Shown here: piece by piece, positions 3,563 to 54,858 of the stretch
Position numbering within the stretch: position 1 is the first letter of the stretch
Layout of the letters: every line of letters starts with the position of its first letter
Source: Escherichia coli
GTDB lineage: Bacteria; Pseudomonadota; Gammaproteobacteria; Enterobacterales; Enterobacteriaceae
Length of the DNA: 64,000 nucleotides
Assembly (NCBI RefSeq): GCF_024700885.2
Contig: NZ_CP117014.1
Direction: 5' to 3' (one strand)
Position numbers and translations under genes: made by a program
Notes under the pieces: generated by a model
Database searches by the model: none
The model's input: only the letters and a program-made list of their open reading frames with translations
What the model was told of the DNA's origin: nothing

Positions 3563-4303
3563 TTACAAACCGCGTTTTTTGCGAATGCGCATTGATTTTT
3601 TGCGGTTGATATTCGCTACGGATGTATGTGCTTTGCGGCGTGCTTTTTTCAGCGCCTGTTTTTGCAATGACGTCATGCGGCGAGGACGCGGGCGTTTACG
3701 GATGATGGTTACCTTGCCATCACGAACCACTTTTTTACGTACCGCTTCCAGCATTGCGCTATCACCACCAGCAACGGTGTAAATGGCAATAGCTGTTTCC
3801 ATCATGTCGGTGTCGCTTTCGGAAAGAGCGTCATAAACACGTTCGGCAGCTGAGTCATCTTCATCGTCGATCATTTCGGTTACATCATCCTGATCAGCGC
3901 CAAGCGCAACAGCTGCATCAGCAAGAGCTGCGAGTGCATCGTTATAAGCATCGATTTGCTCATCGGTGAAATCGGTGTCTTCATCGATATCAGCCAGGCC
4001 AGCCATAGTGATTGCTAATGCATCAAATGAGTCAGCCTCCGGATCACCATCTTCAACCCAACCAGCAAGCATGGAAGCTGCCAGGCTGCGCATATCACCT
4101 TGTGCACGGGATTCAACCGCTTCCATCATCGCGGTTTCAATGTCGTCTTTGGGCTTTGGTTGAGTGTCCTTTCCTTTCTGTCCTGCGCTTTCCAGCATGG
4201 CGTTATCATTATTGTCCTGCGTGGATTTATCACCGCTTTCAAAGCAGCCAGAACCGAAAATCGCACGCATAAAAGGATCAGCAGTATAATTTTTCATATT
4301 CAA
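3563..4303 (-). CDS. Acidic virion protein with strongly basic C-terminal tail (246 aa)
   Basis: D/E-rich central region followed by K/R-rich C-terminus (KRPRPRR...RKKRGL); composition typical of internal or DNA-associated virion proteins. Confidence 0.35.
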   Translation of the reverse strand: MNMKNYTADPFMRAIFGSGCFESGDKSTQDNNDNAMLESAGQKGKDTQPKPKDDIETAMMEAVESRAQGDMRSLAASMLAGWVEDGDPEADSFDALAITMAGLADIDEDTDFTDEQIDAYNDALAALADAAVALGADQDDVTEMIDDEDDSAAERVYDALSESDTDMMETAIAIYTVAGGDSAMLEAVRKKVVRDGKVTIIRKRPRPRRMTSLQKQALKKARRKAHTSVANINRKKSMRIRKKRGL

Positions 4304-14040: not shown

Positions 14041-15702
14041 ATGAGTGAGGCAGAAGCCCGCCCGACTAACTTTATTCGTCAGATCATCGATGAAGATCTG
14101 GCCAGTGGTAAGCACACCACAGTACATACCCGTTTCCCGCCGGAACCGAATGGCTATCTGCATATTGGTCATGCGAAATCTATCTGCCTGAACTTCGGGA
14201 TCGCCCAGGACTATAAAGGCCAGTGCAACCTGCGTTTCGACGACACTAACCCGGTAAAAGAAGATATCGAGTACGTCGAGTCGATTAAAAACGACGTTGA
14301 ATGGTTAGGTTTTCACTGGTCTGGCAACATCCGTTACTCCTCCGATTATTTTGACAAACTCCATGCCTATGCTGTTGAACTGATCAACAAAGGCCTGGCG
14401 TATGTTGACGAACTGACGCCGGAACAGATCCGCGAATACCGCGGCACCCTGACGCAGCCGGGTAAAAACAGCCCGTACCGCGACCGCAGCGTTGAAGAGA
14501 ACCTGGCGCTGTTCGAAAAAATGCGTGCCGGTGGTTTTGAAGAAGGTAAAGCCTGCCTGCGTGCGAAAATCGACATGGCTTCGCCGTTTATCGTGATGCG
14601 CGACCCGGTGCTGTACCGCATTAAGTTTGCTGAACATCACCAGACTGGCAACAAGTGGTGCATCTACCCGATGTACGACTTCACCCACTGCATCAGCGAT
14701 GCGCTGGAAGGTATTACGCACTCTCTGTGTACGCTTGAGTTCCAGGACAACCGTCGTCTGTATGACTGGGTACTGGACAACATCACCATTCCTGTTCACC
14801 CGCGCCAGTACGAATTTTCGCGCCTGAATCTGGAATACACTGTGATGTCCAAGCGTAAGCTGAACCTGCTGGTGACCGACAAGCACGTTGAAGGCTGGGA
14901 TGACCCGCGTATGCCGACCATTTCCGGTCTGCGTCGTCGTGGTTACACTGCGGCTTCTATTCGTGAGTTCTGCAAACGCATCGGCGTGACCAAGCAGGAC
15001 AACACCATTGAGATGGCGTCGCTGGAATCCTGCATCCGTGAAGATCTCAACGAAAATGCGCCGCGCGCAATGGCGGTTATCGATCCGGTGAAACTGGTTA
15101 TCGAAAACTACCAGGGCGAAGGCGAAATGGTCACCATGCCGAACCATCCAAACAAACCGGAAATGGGTAGCCGTCAGGTGCCGTTTAGCGGTGAGATTTG
15201 GATCGACCGCGCCGATTTCCGCGAAGAAGCTAACAAGCAGTACAAACGTCTGGTGCTGGGTAAAGAAGTGCGTCTGCGTAATGCTTACGTCATTAAGGCT
15301 GAACGCGTGGAGAAAGATGCCGAAGGCAATATCACCACCATCTTCTGTACTTATGACGCCGACACCTTAAGCAAAGATCCGGCAGATGGTCGTAAAGTGA
15401 AAGGCGTTATTCACTGGGTGAGCGCGGCACATGCGCTGCCGGTTGAAATCCGCCTGTACGATCGTCTGTTCAGCGTGCCGAACCCAGGTGCTGCGGATGA
15501 TTTCCTGTCGGTGATTAACCCGGAATCGCTGGTGATCAAACAGGGTTTTGCTGAACCGTCGCTGAAAGAAGCGGTAGCGGGTAAAGCATTCCAGTTTGAG
15601 CGTGAAGGTTATTTCTGCCTCGACAGCCGCCATTCTACGGCGGAAAAACCGGTATTTAACCGCACCGTTGGGCTGCGTGATACCTGGGCGAAGTTAGGTT
15701 AA
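14041..15702 (+). CDS. glnS: Glutaminyl-tRNA synthetase
   Basis: 553-aa class I aaRS with HIGH (LHIGHAKS) and KMSKS-like (VMSKR) motifs; essentially indistinguishable by eye from enterobacterial GlnRS; own terminator. Confidence 0.95.
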
Positions 15703-15726: not shown

Positions 15727-15753
15727 TAAACGCCGCTACTGCGGCGTTTTTTA
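15727..15753 (+). terminator. Rho-independent terminator after glnS
   Basis: AAACGCCGC-tact-GCGGCGTTT hairpin followed by T-tract. Confidence 0.65.
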
Positions 15754-17979
15754 CTTCATTATTGCAATTATATCGTTAGCAACTACACGTGTTGACGCCT
15801 TGCAGGACACCGACCGTCTGGCTGCCATATGATGTACTTTAAACCCGTTTCGTTCATATAGTTCACGGATGTTTGGCGCACCACTATTTGTTATCACTAC
15901 CTTAGCGCCGCGCTGGTGGGCTTCCACCAATAGAGATACCAGCCGTTTCTGTTCGTCGAAACGGAAGCTATTTCCTGAATAACTGGTAAACCCTTCTGTA
16001 TCCGGCAGCGGTTCATACGGCGGATCGCAAAAAATCACATCGCCTTCACCAGCCGCCTCGATGACGCCAGCAAAGTCACCTGATACAAAGGACGTGTTTT
16101 TGAGTACGTCATCAGCCAAAAATGCCTCCATCTCTGCATGTGGGAAGTAGGGCGCTTTGTATTTGCCATACCCCACGTTGAACTCGCCATTTTGGTTGTA
16201 CCGCGTTACGCCATTAAAACAGTGCCGATTAAGGTACAAAAAGGCGGCAGCATGATGTAGCTGGTCATACTTTCCTCTGTTAAATGCCTCGCGCACTTCG
16301 AGGTAAGCGTCAGCGTTGTTGTAATTTTTGAAAAAACTATATGCCAGCGTGACGAGCGAATGTCCCTCTCGCTGCAATGTCTGATAGAAGTTAATCAGGT
16401 CACCGTTAATATCATTAAGCAGGTTGTGGCGAAATCCTGCATTCGTAAATACGGAACCGCCACCAACGAATGGTTCTATTAACCGCTTGCCGTGTGGTAG
16501 ATGCTCAAGCACTGTAGGCAACTCTGAGAATTTACCGCCTACCCATTTGAATATTGGGCGTTCATATTCATCCGGAGTCCGGAGTTTTCTTGTGTAGGTA
16601 ATGGTATTTATTGTTTTTTGCTGTTTATCCGCTACGGTCGCAAGAATGCGACACCCTATCCATTGCATAACAGGAACTGCCATGCTGTTGCCGATCGCTT
16701 TGTAACGCGGTCCGTCAGCTGCAAGCATCGCGGCCTCTTCTTCGCTTAAATCTGGATAGTGATTGCGAAGGTATGCCAGTTCATCTGAAGAAACTTTTTT
16801 ACGCTTTTCCGTAGGGATCAACGTGTGCCCGTCAGGAAAGCCCTGCAGGCGTTCGCACTCGACAGGCGTTAAGCGACGTACTGCCACTCCGACGTTCGCA
16901 CTGTCAAAAACAGCCAGGTCGGTTGCATCCTTAAAATCTCTGGCCTTGACCGTGGAAGCCGCCTCATCATCCGCATACTCACCAAATGCTACCATCCGGT
17001 AAGCACCGACAAGCCCACTTCCGCGCTGTGAAAAAATCTCCTGGTTGCTTGCACCCGTCCCGCCGGTATTGTGCGATCGGGCAAGTGTCGGGTGAGGATT
17101 TACAGGGTTATCCCAATGGCTCCCGCTTTTAATGCCATTTCCAACATTTCCGGCAACTTCCTTCCCCTCGCCTCTGCTCGGCGCAATATCCCGGCGCACG
17201 CCTTCGAACTCAAAAAGTACCGTTGCGGGATCGAGGTCTGTTCGAGCACTTGCGACAACAAACACGCGTCGGCGTCGTTGTGCCACTCCGAAGTATTGGG
17301 CATCAAGTATTCTCCAGGCCACCTTTCGCTGCGGTCCATAAATACAACCACACTGCGGCCACTTTGGAGCATGGCAACCGGTTTTGCCATCCCACCGCCA
17401 GAACGCGTTACTTTTTCCTGATTCAGGTCGATCACCTGGTTCAAATGGTGCATCTTCTCCAGCCAATCCGGCAAGGAAACATCCGAAGGCGTTATCTGCC
17501 GATGACAGGACTCCTGGGACATTTTCCCAGACGATAACTGTCGGTTTGAGGAAGGACTCAGACCGTTTGTCGTCAATTGCATTTGCAAGCTCCACATACT
17601 TCAAAGTTAGCGCGCCGCGCTCATCATCAAGCCCACCACGTAATCCCGCGATACTGAATGCCTGACAAGGTGTTCCCCCGACGAGCACATCAGGGGATTC
17701 GATTTCCCCAGCCAGGACTTTTTTGGCAAGTTTTGTCATATCGCCAAGGTTGGCGATATGAGGCCAGCGGTGCGCAAGAACGGCAGATGGAAAAGGCTCA
17801 ATTTCAGCAAACCACGCCGGACGCATACCCAACGGTTCCCAGGCAATGCTCGCGGCTTCAATTCCACTGCAAACTGAACCATATCGAAGGTTAACGTTCT
17901 GCTTCACCGCCAATGGCCTCCACCAGCGCGTTAAACAGTGCAGATAATTCGCCCGTAAAGAGCACGAAATCAGCATCAA
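15751..17979 (-). CDS. dmt: Bifunctional DNA methyltransferase: N-terminal C5-cytosine (Dcm-type) plus C-terminal N6-adenine (Dam-type), P1 Dmt-like
   Basis: Motifs [22 protein letters not shown] in N-terminal half; DPPY and Dam-like region in C-terminal half; start uncertain, ORF overlaps rdgC 3' end by ~88 nt. Confidence 0.8.
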
Positions 17980-50180: not shown

Positions 50181-50214
50181 CTAACTTTAAATAATGCCAA
50201 TTATTTAAAGTTAT
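50181..50214. other. lox-like recombination site: 13-bp inverted arms with 8-bp asymmetric spacer
   Basis: CTAACTTTAAATA-ATGCCAAT-TATTTAAAGTTAT; outer AACTT/AAGTTAT shared with loxP. Confidence 0.6.
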
Positions 50215-50423: not shown

Positions 50424-51461
50424 ATGAGTAAGAAGTCGATCGAGAAAGAGTACAAACGGTTCCTGCAAACCGCTGAACGGTGGAAAGAGCTGGTGGTCGC
50501 AAACTCTGTTTTCCATGATACCAGTTATGCTGGCGAGGAATTCCGCCATGTTGCATTAACGCATGACCAAAACATATTAGAAGAAGCTGAAAAATGTCTT
50601 GCTGAATGGAAAGCCTTCGTTGACATGTGCCGCGATGCCGACGGCAAAGCGTCGAACATTGTTGAGTCTGTATATTCTCCGATCCCATTCATCATTGAGG
50701 ACACCAATCAAAGCACGCATGTCGTTGTGCAAAGCGCTACAACAACACGTACATTTACACGTGAACAATTGCTAAAAAAATACGACAAAATCATAAAGAA
50801 AAGCCTTAAAAATAGGGTTTTTTCTCAAATCGTAGGTGATCTTGAAGAAGAACAGCGCTTCTTTGAAGCTGAGCCTGAAGGCGAGATCTACCGGGCGCGT
50901 AAAGAGGCATATACAGATGTTGTGCTGACAACAAACATCGAAGGCAGCAATGCCCTTTCTCGCTTTAGAGTTGGCGCACATGGTGCATTGGTTTTCGCAA
51001 GACTACCGAAGACAACGATCCCCGTTGTCAATAATGTTGGTGAACGCCGGAGCATTACAATTTATTCTGGCGTCGAATCGGTACCTTGCAGCCTTCTCGG
51101 CGATTTTAACTTATATCGTGTTCGTGACCTGGAAAAACACCAGCCAAGCTATGTTGCGAAGTCGTACATCTTAAGGAACATCGATATTCGCAATGAAAGC
51201 CTTAAGCAGAAATCCGCTAAGATGCTGGAGGATGCCGATCCGGCTATTCGCCATATCATTGAGCGTAAGATACGTACATCACGTGAAGCAATGGCAAGGC
51301 TGGATAAAATGGATCTGGAATTGTTAGACGTAATGATGGCCTCTGGAGACGACCTGACCGGCATTAAACTGAATGAAGCTCGTAAAAAATACGGCAAAGC
51401 AATCGAAGAACGTTACGGATACACATTCCCCCAAACGCAGTACGCCGCGAAGCTCTGGTAA
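50424..51461 (+). CDS. Hypothetical protein in the c1-equivalent position (345 aa); candidate regulator
   Basis: Convergent with pacB and adjacent to lox-like site, as for c1 in P1; motif copy in own promoter; no recognisable P1 C1 similarity. Confidence 0.4.
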   Translation: MSKKSIEKEYKRFLQTAERWKELVVANSVFHDTSYAGEEFRHVALTHDQNILEEAEKCLAEWKAFVDMCRDADGKASNIVESVYSPIPFIIEDTNQSTHVVVQSATTTRTFTREQLLKKYDKIIKKSLKNRVFSQIVGDLEEEQRFFEAEPEGEIYRARKEAYTDVVLTTNIEGSNALSRFRVGAHGALVFARLPKTTIPVVNNVGERRSITIYSGVESVPCSLLGDFNLYRVRDLEKHQPSYVAKSYILRNIDIRNESLKQKSAKMLEDADPAIRHIIERKIRTSREAMARLDKMDLELLDVMMASGDDLTGIKLNEARKKYGKAIEERYGYTFPQTQYAAKLW

Positions 51462-51468
51462 TCACAAC

Positions 51469-51490
51469 CGGCCCCGCATCGCGGGGCTTT
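51469..51490. terminator. Bidirectional hairpin terminator between convergent genes
   Basis: GCCCCGC-atc-GCGGGGC followed by TTTATATAT. Confidence 0.55.
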
Positions 51491-52997
51491 ATATATCCAG
51501 ATCCGGCATTTCGATATCCGCCAGAACCTGATCTCGGAAAGTTGCCATTTCGGCACCAATATCTTCATTAGCAGGCACATAGTCCACCAGCATAGTGAAG
51601 CAGTAGGTATCCCATCGGTCAGGCGATTTGATGTTTAGCTTTTGCCGCATGTGCTCTTTGCGCATCATCGCCATTTTCCCTTCTTCATTCAGTAAAAAGG
51701 GGATTTTTGACGCTTGCTCTGCCGTTTTAGGGTCACTGTCTATCCGCATACGCCCTGACTTTATGGCATCACGCGCCATAATGTTTGCGTAGGCACGCTG
51801 ATTAACAAATCGCTCCCTGTCTTTGTTCGCAAACATGGGTTTTCCCCACCGAATACGTACCGGGTTCGCACCACGACGCACCAACTGCGCACACGTATCA
51901 GAACCAAAACCATCAGCATCAACCGCGATTGTTATATTCGGGTATTTTTCCGGCGTACATTCGTTATATATGAAGTCAGCAAAGGCCAATGGGTCCATAG
52001 TGCCAGGCATCTCCATTACCTTAAAGTTAACAACGCGCCGCTTATCCCTGTGACCTGATACCTTGCAGATGTTGAGGACCGACTTATCTCGCCCATTACC
52101 AACGTCAGCCGTTGCCACCCATCCCCAGTTTTTCTCCAACAACACCTTGCGGCGAGCAGAGCGATCGCATTCATCACGACCAAGCAAATAGCCGTTAATT
52201 TCTCGTGGGAACTGACCAAGCACCTTGACCATGTACTCAATAGAATCGCGCCCACCATATTCCAGAAGCTTCTCCTTGATGAATTGTGGTGTGACGAACG
52301 GTGATTCTTCCGAGTTAAGAACAATTGCTGTCCAGATCCCTTTCGGGTTGTCTGGGGTTTTTGCTCGAGAATGGTGCGAATCGTAGAAATAACCACTTGG
52401 CCTTGTTGGCTGGGATAGCATCAACATCCGGTTATCTTCTTCAGTAAGAGCACCGGTCATTACGCCGATCGCCTTATCAGATATACCAGATGCTTCATCC
52501 AGAATTAGAAGCAAATGTGCCGCGTGTTCCCCCGCCAGCGCTTCTTCGTTGCCGAGTCGATAACCTTTGCAGAGAACTTCCCAAATCCCCTTACGGGAGC
52601 GCTCATAAAACATGGTGTCAGAGAGGACAAAATAGGTCTGCAACCACCCATGACGCTTAACTGCATTCGCCCAATACTGTTTAACGTATTTGAATACGCC
52701 TGTTTTTACCTGGCCTATCTTGTTAGCAACAATGATGACACGGGCATCGGGGAACAGGATCATAAAAATCAACAGCAACATCGCGGTAAGGGACGACTTC
52801 CCCGTTCCGTGTCCGGACGTGACGGTCGTCCTACTCCCCGTTTCCTGCACTGACTGAATGATCTGCTGCTGCTGGTGGGAGGGGAACATCCCAAAAATAT
52901 CGACTACAGCCTGGGTAAAGTTGTAGCGGTATTTGATTACCATATCGCGCCAGCGTGGATCGCTGGTGACGCATTTAATCTTGCGCCCGCCAGCCAT
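51489..52997 (-). CDS. pacB: Terminase large subunit (PacB-like)
   Basis: Walker A GHGTGKSS, Walker B LLLILDEASG; 502 aa; start overlaps pacA stop. Confidence 0.8.
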   Translation of the reverse strand: MAGGRKIKCVTSDPRWRDMVIKYRYNFTQAVVDIFGMFPSHQQQQIIQSVQETGSRTTVTSGHGTGKSSLTAMLLLIFMILFPDARVIIVANKIGQVKTGVFKYVKQYWANAVKRHGWLQTYFVLSDTMFYERSRKGIWEVLCKGYRLGNEEALAGEHAAHLLLILDEASGISDKAIGVMTGALTEEDNRMLMLSQPTRPSGYFYDSHHSRAKTPDNPKGIWTAIVLNSEESPFVTPQFIKEKLLEYGGRDSIEYMVKVLGQFPREINGYLLGRDECDRSARRKVLLEKNWGWVATADVGNGRDKSVLNICKVSGHRDKRRVVNFKVMEMPGTMDPLAFADFIYNECTPEKYPNITIAVDADGFGSDTCAQLVRRGANPVRIRWGKPMFANKDRERFVNQRAYANIMARDAIKSGRMRIDSDPKTAEQASKIPFLLNEEGKMAMMRKEHMRQKLNIKSPDRWDTYCFTMLVDYVPANEDIGAEMATFRDQVLADIEMPDLDI

Positions 52998-54361
52998 TAA
53001 TCATCCTCCGGCGGTTCTATCGCGATATCATCATCTCCGGCGTCATACCCTGCATCAGATGCATCATAATCACCGTAAATTTCAGCCGTTGCCGAAGGGT
53101 CAATATCCAGCTCTTCGTCGTTGGCCTCGAATTCTCCAGCTTTACGCTCGCCATTGCGGTCGTAATCTCCGCACCCCAATTCTTCAACAATGGTTGCCAC
53201 ATCCGCCCGGCGCTCTGCCAGCCATTGCGGATGGTTAGCCTGAAGCGTTGCAAACTCCCTTGCCTCTTTGTCCAGCTGTTCATCATCAACATCATTGACG
53301 TCAGAAACAGGTGGTTCGAGAAGAGTGATAGCTTTCGCCGCGCGCGCCGCGAGGATAGCCGGGACGCTGACACCCTGGCGCTCGATGTATTCAGCAACAC
53401 CGATATCATCCAGTTCCTCGCGCTCACGCATACGTATAGCGGCGGCGATAACTCTGGCTGCGCGTGCGTCAGCGCCAATGCGATATTCAATCTCTTTGCC
53501 ACGCTGTTCGGCCTGTAGGCGTGCTAATTCGAGTTTTTCTCTGGCCTCAGCCTCTTTGAATGCTTGCTGGCGAGCGCTCTGACGAAGCTTTTCATCCCCC
53601 TGTCGCAGCTTTTGTTCGGACTGATATATAGCTGCCAACCTACTGATAAAATCATTCATGTAGTAGGCCGCGTCACTGATTAGACCGAGAAGGCGCTGCC
53701 CAGGGTGCATTCCTTCTGGCTCTTTATCGCCCAAGGCGTCTATTTCCGCCTGTAGACGTTCGGCCTCCTGATCAACAATGCTTTGATACTGAAGTGCGCG
53801 CTCTTGCGCCATTTGAATTGCTAACCGCAGGTGTTCTTCTGCGCCGTTCTTCATCATATCGCGAGCCACATTCGTAGTTGGCAATGTGGCACGCTGCACA
53901 GCACCGTCAGGGATCATTGCAGAAGATCCCTCAATTTTTGGGGCGTTTTTATCTTCTTCGGGGATCATTTTCGCCATTTTTTCGCGCAATGATCTCCTGA
54001 CAGATTCTTTTATCTCATTGTTATTATTTGAATTATTTTCATGATCCGAAGTTTTCTTTCTCGGCATACTTCGGAAAGAACCTGCGCCCTGCGAATTGTC
54101 AATTTCTGTAAATTTTGTTTTTTCTGCACCCTCTTCCAGCTTTTTTGTTGCTCTTCCCGCCCGTTTTTTTTCAGGTGATTTGGTGCTTTTTTTTGTTGTC
54201 TTTACCTGCGACCGCACCTCATTTTTTTTCATATTGAGATGCTTTCTGGCTGTATTGAAGCTAAGGCCATGCTCCTCACAGTATTCCTTTACAGTGATCC
54301 CTTTTTCTTCACGCAACGCTATAAAGCGGGCGCGGTGCTCCTCCCAATTAACCAGACTCAT
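52997..54361 (-). CDS. pacA: Terminase small subunit (PacA-like) with N-terminal HTH
   Basis: N-terminal ...KEYCEEHGLSFNTARKHL HTH; acidic C-terminus; internal GATC cluster. Confidence 0.7.
   Translation of the reverse strand: MSLVNWEEHRARFIALREEKGITVKEYCEEHGLSFNTARKHLNMKKNEVRSQVKTTKKSTKSPEKKRAGRATKKLEEGAEKTKFTEIDNSQGAGSFRSMPRKKTSDHENNSNNNNEIKESVRRSLREKMAKMIPEEDKNAPKIEGSSAMIPDGAVQRATLPTTNVARDMMKNGAEEHLRLAIQMAQERALQYQSIVDQEAERLQAEIDALGDKEPEGMHPGQRLLGLISDAAYYMNDFISRLAAIYQSEQKLRQGDEKLRQSARQQAFKEAEAREKLELARLQAEQRGKEIEYRIGADARAARVIAAAIRMREREELDDIGVAEYIERQGVSVPAILAARAAKAITLLEPPVSDVNDVDDEQLDKEAREFATLQANHPQWLAERRADVATIVEELGCGDYDRNGERKAGEFEANDEELDIDPSATAEIYGDYDASDAGYDAGDDDIAIEPPEDD
53912..54046. other. 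Candidate pac site: cluster of five GATC (Dam) sites within pacA
   Basis: GATC at 53912, 53925, 53963, 53991, 54043 (~0.5 expected by chance); GGGATCATT duplicated. Confidence 0.4.
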
Positions 54362-54750
54362 AAAGCAACACCACGCTTTTTAACGGCGGCATTCCACAGC
54401 TTATTCGCCATGTCCACCAGCTCTCGTTGCTCTTTTCGCGCCTGTTCGACTGATTTCCTGCTACAGTTTTTAACCAGTAAACTGCCATATTCAGGGGTTC
54501 GCCCACGCACCTTGAACTGATATCCGTTCAGGCCATGCAACCAGTATTTTCGTGGGTAAACACGATCATCAAGCTCACAGATTGCCCTGCTTGAACGAAC
54601 AAAATGACGAATGATGTTAGTTACACTTACTCGTGAAACATGGAGATGAGGGTATTTTTCTTTGGCGAGAGTGGTAATTTCAGTGACTGTCAGATAGCAG
54701 TCAGCCCTGATCATGATATCCGCAATTTCTGCGCTGCTGATTTGTTCCAT
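54358..54750 (-). CDS. Small protein immediately upstream of pacA (Lpa-position gene; putative late activator)
   Basis: 130 aa, 4-nt overlap with pacA start; assignment by synteny with P1 lpa only. Confidence 0.4.
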   Translation of the reverse strand: MEQISSAEIADIMIRADCYLTVTEITTLAKEKYPHLHVSRVSVTNIIRHFVRSSRAICELDDRVYPRKYWLHGLNGYQFKVRGRTPEYGSLLVKNCSRKSVEQARKEQRELVDMANKLWNAAVKKRGVAL

Positions 54751-54858
54751 TAATCCCCCGGGCAGGAAATGACCGAGGGGATGATAATGAGAATGTTAAA
54801 ACTGTATAGACTGGTAAAAAGATGAATGTATTAGAAAATTAATACTAAATATCTAATG

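Follow-up and report, generated by a model that had tools for sequence, protein, structure and literature searches.

A cluster of GATC sites within pacA as a candidate pac site of D6-type phage-plasmids

Introduction

At which site is the DNA of a D6-type plasmid prophage recognised for packaging, and does adenine methylation take part in the control of this step? These questions are raised by five closely spaced GATC sites within the pacA gene of an Escherichia coli element, located in a stretch of 64,000 nucleotides of contig NZ_CP117014.1 that was analysed as a whole and is referred to here as the window. An initial annotation, made from the sequence alone, had proposed that these sites form a methylation-controlled pac site resembling that of phage P1. 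The pac site of P1, as described by Sternberg and Coulby, comprises 161-162 bp inside pacA and contains two groups of TGATCA/G repeats, HEX4 and HEX3, together with an IHF site, and its cleavage is regulated by Dam. This site has been mapped and the Dam dependence of its cleavage has been experimentally established in work that included a synonymous recoding of the P1 site (PMC10028697), and the termini of P1 have been described as well, being recovered by a PhageTerm analysis of read starts (PMC5557969). The analyses described below suggest that the cluster serves as the recognition part of a D6-type pac site, which is probably controlled by adenine methylation and homologous to P1 pac in role and position; we assign a probability of about 0.6 to this reading.

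Genomic context and packaging genes

Positions 51400-54800 of the window share 98.9% identity with Escherichia phage D6, whose labels for this stretch are lpa, pacA, and pacB, and numerous E. coli plasmids with sizes near 90 kb carry a pacA gene that is 100% identical. Because of these two findings the window is regarded as part of a D6-type plasmid prophage. At the DNA level, 120 plasmid records match this pacA. The gene order lpa-pacA-pacB-c1-rox-dre is the same as in P1, with the late-promoter-activator gene (lpa) preceding pacA and pacB coming after it.

The small terminase (pacase A subunit) is encoded by pacA at 52997..54361 on the minus strand (454 codons; 98.9% identical to pacA of D6). 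PacA consists of an N-terminal helix-turn-helix (HTH), which gives a weak match to HTH_23, followed by a little-conserved linker (about aa 50-155), in which the GATC sites are located, and a conserved C-terminal part. Its identity with P1 PacA amounts to 21% across the full length (E = 6e-10). The gene for the large terminase (pacase B subunit), at 51489..52997 on the minus strand, encodes a protein of 502 aa with a weak Terminase_6N match; it is labelled pacB in D6, and its product presumably acts as the nuclease/ATPase in the cutting of pac. The Dre recombination site rox was identified by an exact 32-bp match at 50182..50213 on the plus strand. It lies 3.7 kb from the GATC cluster on the pacB/c1 side, i.e., downstream in the direction of pacA transcription. 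Neither of the two D6 records carries a label for a pac site, and a full-text literature search did not find a description of a D6 pac site. What is new here is an unannotated pac candidate that has a variant repeat and is missing one arm, although an earlier description is possible.

Anatomy of the GATC cluster

The GATC sites start at window positions 53912, 53925, 53963, 53991, and 54043 and together span 53912-54046 (135 bp). This corresponds to nt 316-450 of pacA and to aa 106-150 of its product, within the unconserved linker following the HTH. In the D6 record, the counterpart of window positions 53900-54050 is located at about 3700-3860. The initial annotation had counted five GATC in 135 bp against about 0.5 expected, had placed them approximately 310-450 nt into pacA, and had pointed out a duplicated sequence. 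All three statements agree with the present data: 0.47 sites are expected from 225 GATC per 64 kb, the cluster occupies nt 316-450 of the open reading frame 52997-54361 (minus strand), and GGGATCATT is found twice, at 53910-53918 and at 53961-53969.

Numbered along pacA, site 1 (ATGATCCG; 54041..54048, pacA nt 316-319) is read on the plus strand (the bottom strand with respect to pacA), and its codons specify S-D-H. Site 2 (AATGATCTCC; 53988..53997, nt 368-371) is also oriented on the plus strand and is paired as an inverted repeat with site 3 (AATGATCCCC; 53960..53969, nt 396-399), which is located on the minus strand, i.e., the pacA coding strand, encodes M-I-P, and represents one copy of the direct repeat D2. 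Site 4 (AAGATCCC; 53923..53930, nt 434-437; plus strand) is degenerate in the window and in D6 and reads ATGATC in more distant relatives. Site 5 (AATGATCCC; 53910..53918, nt 447-450; minus strand, pacA coding strand) again encodes M-I-P and is part of the repeats D2 and I3.

The repeat underlying these sites is ATGATC(C/T), an asymmetric element with the consensus AATGATCCC; the hexamers of the five sites are TGATCC (three times), TGATCT, and AGATCC. Along the pacA coding strand, sites 1, 2, and 4 are in reverse and sites 3 and 5 in forward orientation. This results in two inverted pairs, formed by sites 2 and 3 (28 bp centre to centre; recovered among the inverted repeats I3 and I4) and by sites 4 and 5 (13 bp centre to centre). 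The spacings of 52, 28, 38, and 13 bp are unchanged in every intact D6-type gene, and the sites form a single group, the biggest internal gap being 52 bp.

A further, isolated GATC (GTGATCCC; 54296..54299, pacA nt 63, no strand assigned) is located in the HTH-coding part. It is kept in all 16 D6-type sequences, recurs at the corresponding codons (G-I-T) of the Serratia lineage, and is absent in the Enterobacter lineage. The G-I-T peptide is itself conserved, and this GATC could be either a distant extra element or a case of mere coding conservation.

Density of the cluster

For any number of sites from 3 to 7, GATC is nowhere else in the window as dense as in this cluster. With 4 to 6 sites this is also true of the complete D6 genome, where the second-densest separate group of five sites covers 331 bp. 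The motif ATGATCY occurs in 25 copies in the 91-kb D6 genome, four of which are within the 135 bp. The Poisson probability of 1.4e-4 is valid only for a place named beforehand; when sites are placed at random, 21% of 64-kb windows and 30% of 91-kb genomes have at least one stretch of 135 bp that contains five of them. When synonymous codons were shuffled with the protein kept, the cluster stretch contained a mean of 2.1 GATC, and five or more were reached with a probability of 0.014. Density as sole proof was dropped since 21-30% of random placements produce a cluster that is equally tight. By itself, density is weak evidence; the comparative evidence is stronger.

Conservation among D6-type relatives

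For the comparative analysis, D6-type pacA genes from plasmids and from IMG/VR were considered, ranging from 100% down to about 71% nucleotide identity. These represent only three or four deep D6-type lineages, so the conservation counts given here are not fully independent. All five sites are present in register in all relatives, down to about 71% identity. Among 16 distinct D6-type pacA sequences, sites 1, 3, 4, and 5 are kept in every one and site 2 in 15, and the GATC sites downstream of the cluster in pacA are kept in only 1-13 of the 16. The sole loss concerns a natural D6-type variant (L019; IMGVR_UViG_2645727555_000005), in which GATC of site 2 is changed into GACC at pacA nt 368.

When pacA nt 251-500 are aligned, conserved islands inside a diverged stretch are seen at the sites. 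All 20 GATC columns are invariant, including all seven third-codon positions among them; outside GATC, 44% of the columns and 30% of the third positions are invariant. The extent of the islands differs from site to site. CGGATCA is invariant at site 1 (in seven D6-type sequences), G.GATCATT at site 2, the 10 nt of AAATGATCCC at site 3, and AATGATCCC at site 5, and the invariant part of site 4 consists only of GATC and one flanking base. Both isoleucine codons of the MIP peptides are ATC in 16 of 16 sequences, and ATC accounts for 40% of the isoleucine codons in pacA and pacB. The only conserved peptide islands of the linker, DH, GS[L/F], and the two copies of MIP, are the translations of the DNA elements. 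The invariance of third positions and the presence of conserved islands in an otherwise unconserved linker therefore indicate that selection acts on the DNA.

Comparison with the pac site of P1

In P1, pac extends over pacA nt 195-353, with four TGATCA at nt 195-229 and three TGATCA/G at nt 325-348; a fourth GATC on the right side is found at nt 376. The P1 record annotates an IHF site at nt 256-268 and cleavage positions at nt 276-285, and the distance from pac to lox is 4.0 kb. Sternberg and Coulby reportedly found in 1987 that both arms contribute to P1 cleavage.

The D6-type cluster resembles this site in several respects. In both phages, the part of pacA that follows the HTH and encodes the linker contains GATC repeats, the homologous PacA and PacB genes are adjacent, and a Dam-family methylase is encoded. 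In addition, the recombination site is on the same side and at a similar distance (rox 3.7 kb, P1 lox 4.0 kb). However, the D6-type repeat AATGATCCC is asymmetric and alternates in orientation, and none of the five sites matches TGATCA/G. The sites form one group of five instead of four plus three sites around a gap of about 90-96 bp, and they are located deeper in the gene (nt 316-450 versus nt 195-353). Finally, an IHF site is annotated in P1, whereas the D6-type candidate for such a site is without statistical support. The analogy drawn by the initial annotation accordingly has to be narrowed: its claim of the same relative position as in P1 applies to the linker-coding part of pacA, but the cluster coincides with the right arm of P1 pac and the region beyond it and not with the whole site. 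Likewise, the comparison with the methylatable P1 hexamers is correct for the GATC repeats as Dam sites, but the repeats are ATGATC(C/T) and not TGATCA/G, and they are not bipartite.

As a control, the same scan was applied to the complete P1-type plasmid NZ_CP030188 (L100 + L101), where it returned pac as the top cluster of seven and of eight sites (pacA nt 195-380). The tightest cluster of that genome consists of five GATC in 55 bp (93466-93520) directly upstream of repA, which we take to be the position of P1 oriR. This oriR-type cluster is similar to the D6-type cluster in being a dense GATC group found by the same scan, but it adjoins repA, whereas the D6-type cluster is located in pacA, far from replication genes. 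In the D6 record, the repA-like gene D6_42 at 45.8 kb and a repL-like gene at 21.3 kb are tens of kb away from the cluster, and no oriR-like GATC cluster was found near the D6 replication genes.

GATC repeats in other PacA lineages

Clusters of GATC repeats were found in the same linker part of pacA in seven other PacA lineages including P1, and all seven are bipartite; the D6-type cluster thus occupies the pac position of the whole family. In P1, a left arm of four sites is separated by 96 bp from a right arm of three to four sites of the type TGATCA/G. The Serratia lineage has five and three sites around a gap of 83 bp, with GTGATCAC as repeat. Two Pantoea lineages have left arms of six to seven sites with a strict 12-bp spacing, a gap of 126-149 bp, and two sites of the TGATCA type on the right. 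Two sites on either side of 140 bp are present in Citrobacter, and three sites and one site around a gap of 126 bp in Leclercia. In Enterobacter hormaechei, three sites on the left and five on the right are separated by 199 bp, and the element is the D6-type AATGATCCC. The D6 type itself, with its five AATGATCCC sites corresponding to a right arm, has no left arm and hence no gap. It is the only one of the eight lineages without a left arm of 12-bp periodicity, and neither a left arm nor a hidden repeat family, including a GATC-less substitute, was found in pacA nt 1-300.

Across the eight lineages the GATC core is constant, whereas the flanks vary (TGATCA, GTGATCAC, ATGATCCC). As GATC is constant and the flanks are lineage-specific, the methylation site itself appears to be the constant. 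The ATGATCCC repeats are paired with a PacA helix of the sequence NTARKHL and the TGATCA-type repeats with NTARR[E/Y]L. This covariation of recognition helix and flank is weak evidence because it reflects one evolutionary change only.

The nearest lineage outside the D6 type is represented by the E. hormaechei phage-plasmid p60214CZ_1 (NZ_CP085744), whose PacA is 56% identical and for which a pac region is predicted. It shares with the D6 type the AATGATCCC element, a group of five sites (nt 380-471) whose orientations follow a similar order and which contains the 28-bp inverted pair, an AT-rich stretch at a similar distance upstream of this pair, and the same NTARKHL recognition helix. It differs by having its own left arm of three sites with 12-bp spacing (nt 157-181) located 199 bp upstream, which makes it bipartite like P1, and by the absence of a counterpart of D6-type site 1.

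In the Pantoea plasmids L096 and L099, the left-arm GATC hexamers at pacA nt 154-237 follow a strict 12-bp period, as they also do in L008, L097, and P1. When translated, these left arms of the presumed pac sites give PacA peptide repeats of the D-Q/D-H type ('DQAGDH...'), and the DNA signal would thus be written into the protein linker.

Packaging signals in or beside the small-terminase gene are also known from phages P22 (gene 3) and SPP1 (pacL/pacC/pacR), where they are recognised by the small terminase. The location of the signal within the small-terminase gene is a feature that these phages have in common with the D6 type. The pac sites of P22 and SPP1 are not known to consist of GATC repeats or to be under methylation control, and the terminase proteins of these phages have no relationship to PacA.

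The encoded methylase

The presence of a fused Dam/Dcm-type methyltransferase on the element, as claimed initially, was confirmed. A gene at 15751..17979 on the minus strand encodes a DNA methylase of 742 aa with an N-terminal C5-cytosine domain and a C-terminal N6-adenine domain of the Dam family (PF00145 and PF02086). The C-terminal domain matches the NCBIfam model TIGR00571 'dam' with 246.6 bits (cut-off 114.85) and aligns over its full length with E. coli Dam (2G1P; E = 1e-59) as well as with DpnII M1 (E = 8e-46). Because of the known specificity of these homologues, GATC is the probable target of the enzyme. In D6 itself, two separate coding sequences are annotated at this place, encoding an adenine methylase of 302 aa and a cytosine methylase of 227 aa. 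The flanks of the methylase region are about 99% identical to D6, whereas about 1.3 kb in the middle (about 16582-17890) are without a D6 counterpart; the part encoding the C5-methylase has therefore been swapped as a mosaic block.

Other features of the cluster region

Between sites 1 and 2, a conserved AT-rich island contains the IHF-like 13-mer TAACAATGAGATA (54011..54023, minus strand; pacA nt 339-351). It has two mismatches to WATCAANNNNTTR and is identical to the annotated IHF site of P1 in 10 of 13 positions, but such matches occur at chance rate: three sequences that fit the IHF consensus equally well were observed compared with 3.8 in shuffled sequences. The 13-mer is found at the same position in four D6-type lineages, and ATAACA is invariant in the alignment. 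The stretch 54011-54023 is only a candidate for a site of a bending protein.

A simple consensus scan of window positions 53900-54050 on both strands revealed no sigma-70-like promoter, no Rfam family matched over the cluster, and no opposite-strand open reading frame of at least 60 aa overlaps it. Explanations based on a promoter, an RNA, or an overlapping gene were therefore dropped. Runs of 8-9 A (T on the plus strand) occur at pacA nt 130-260 (window 54117-54231). Phased A-tracts in this part of the gene were considered as an intrinsic bend and rejected, as the encoded Lys-rich peptide is not conserved in diverged relatives. None of the D6-type contigs from IMG/VR ends in pacA; headful genomes assemble as permuted circles.

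Model for packaging initiation and alternative explanations

The designation of the cluster as a candidate pac site, already made in the initial annotation, is well supported by the comparative data, namely by the conservation at synonymous sites, the equivalent position in seven other lineages, the control scan of P1, and the geometry of pac and rox. From the analogy to P1 we infer the following course of packaging. PacA would bind via its N-terminal HTH to the AATGATCCC-type elements (window 53910-54048), which comprise two inverted pairs and one upstream element. PacB would then be recruited and cut nearby, and headful packaging would follow the direction in which pacA is transcribed, passing pacB and c1 before reaching rox. 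The rox site would thus be inside the terminal redundancy, which would allow Dre to circularise the injected DNA. Because every element carries GATC, there is probably a link between cutting and adenine methylation, for which host Dam and the Dam-family methylase of the phage would both be responsible. As in P1, hemimethylated, newly replicated sites may be bound and left uncut.

Several points stand against the interpretation as a pac site. The hexamers are unlike those of P1, there is no left arm, and the IHF-like match is at chance rate. Furthermore, the density is not significant genome-wide, amino acids alone explain about two of the five sites, and one variant lacks site 2.

Three alternatives were ranked by confidence and are given in descending order. 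According to the first, the cluster is a pac site whose methylation has no regulatory role, GATC being merely part of the motif that is read by PacA and that was inherited from a common ancestor with P1. All evidence for a pac site applies equally to this explanation, and the invariance of sites 3 and 5 extends beyond GATC to 9-10 nt, as would be the case for a protein-binding motif. However, the flanks vary among the eight lineages and GATC never does, and at site 4 the invariance hardly reaches beyond GATC. Dam dependence is established for P1 (PMC10028697), and the element has its own Dam-family methylase. This alternative is considered rather improbable.

The second alternative is a Dam/SeqA-responsive regulatory or sequestration element within pacA, serving for example the timing of pacA/pacB or the marking of new DNA, with the true pac site located elsewhere. 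Groups of GATC sites are also a hallmark of origins and of promoters regulated by Dam, and the scan of the P1-type plasmid likewise yielded the cluster of five sites in 55 bp upstream of repA. On the other hand, the cluster is separated by tens of kb from the D6 genes resembling repA and repL, has no sigma-70-like promoter over it, and is located at the position of pac in seven other lineages. No other stretch of D6 comes near this GATC density, and there is therefore no alternative candidate for a P1-style pac site. This explanation is judged unlikely. The third alternative, a coding by-product in which conserved peptides (D-H, G-S-L/F, M-I-P) and chance produced the sites and the DNA has no function, can draw on the frequency of chance clusters (21-30% of windows or genomes) and on the 2.1 GATC predicted from the amino acids, but it is very unlikely, as the invariance of seven out of seven third positions in GATC against 30% nearby argues strongly against it, as do the exclusive use of ATC in the MIP codons and the recurrence of the feature in eight lineages with unrelated linker peptides in a surrounding linker that is not conserved.

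Starting from the interpretation as a methylation-controlled pac site, a more far-reaching reading can be put forward, which we regard as tentative and on balance doubtful. According to this, the D6-type pac would be a working one-armed site of the P1 type, GATC would be the family-wide invariant, the flanks would change with the recognition helix of PacA, and the D6 lineage would have dropped the left arm. If this were true, methylation sensing and not a wrapped architecture with two arms would be the conserved principle of packaging initiation in the PacA family, and the linker peptide of the terminase itself would carry the DNA signal as well, in the form of DH and MIP repeats.

Significance

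Phage-plasmids of the D6 type occur frequently in E. coli, Salmonella, and Shigella. Knowledge of the pac site would make it possible to design D6-based phagemids together with pac-deficient helpers, as has been done for P1 (PMC10028697), and would improve the prediction of which DNA is packaged by D6-type elements. Furthermore, the comparison within the family represents a natural experiment on which parts of P1 pac, i.e., the two arms, the IHF site, and methylation, are essential. A D6-type pac site would be an expected extension of P1 biology, and mild surprise comes only from the absence of a left arm and from the constancy of GATC throughout the family.

Additional observations

Several database relatives have a frameshifted or split pacA; L005 contains 40 in-frame stops, and some tblastn hits are distributed over two to four pieces. 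The RefSeq start of pacA in L004 is at an internal codon despite an intact full open reading frame. Apart from the packaging genes, the window encodes a full-length glutaminyl-tRNA synthetase (14041-15702, plus strand) with three class I E/Q synthetase domains, which is also labelled as such in D6 and is an unusual cargo for a phage-plasmid.
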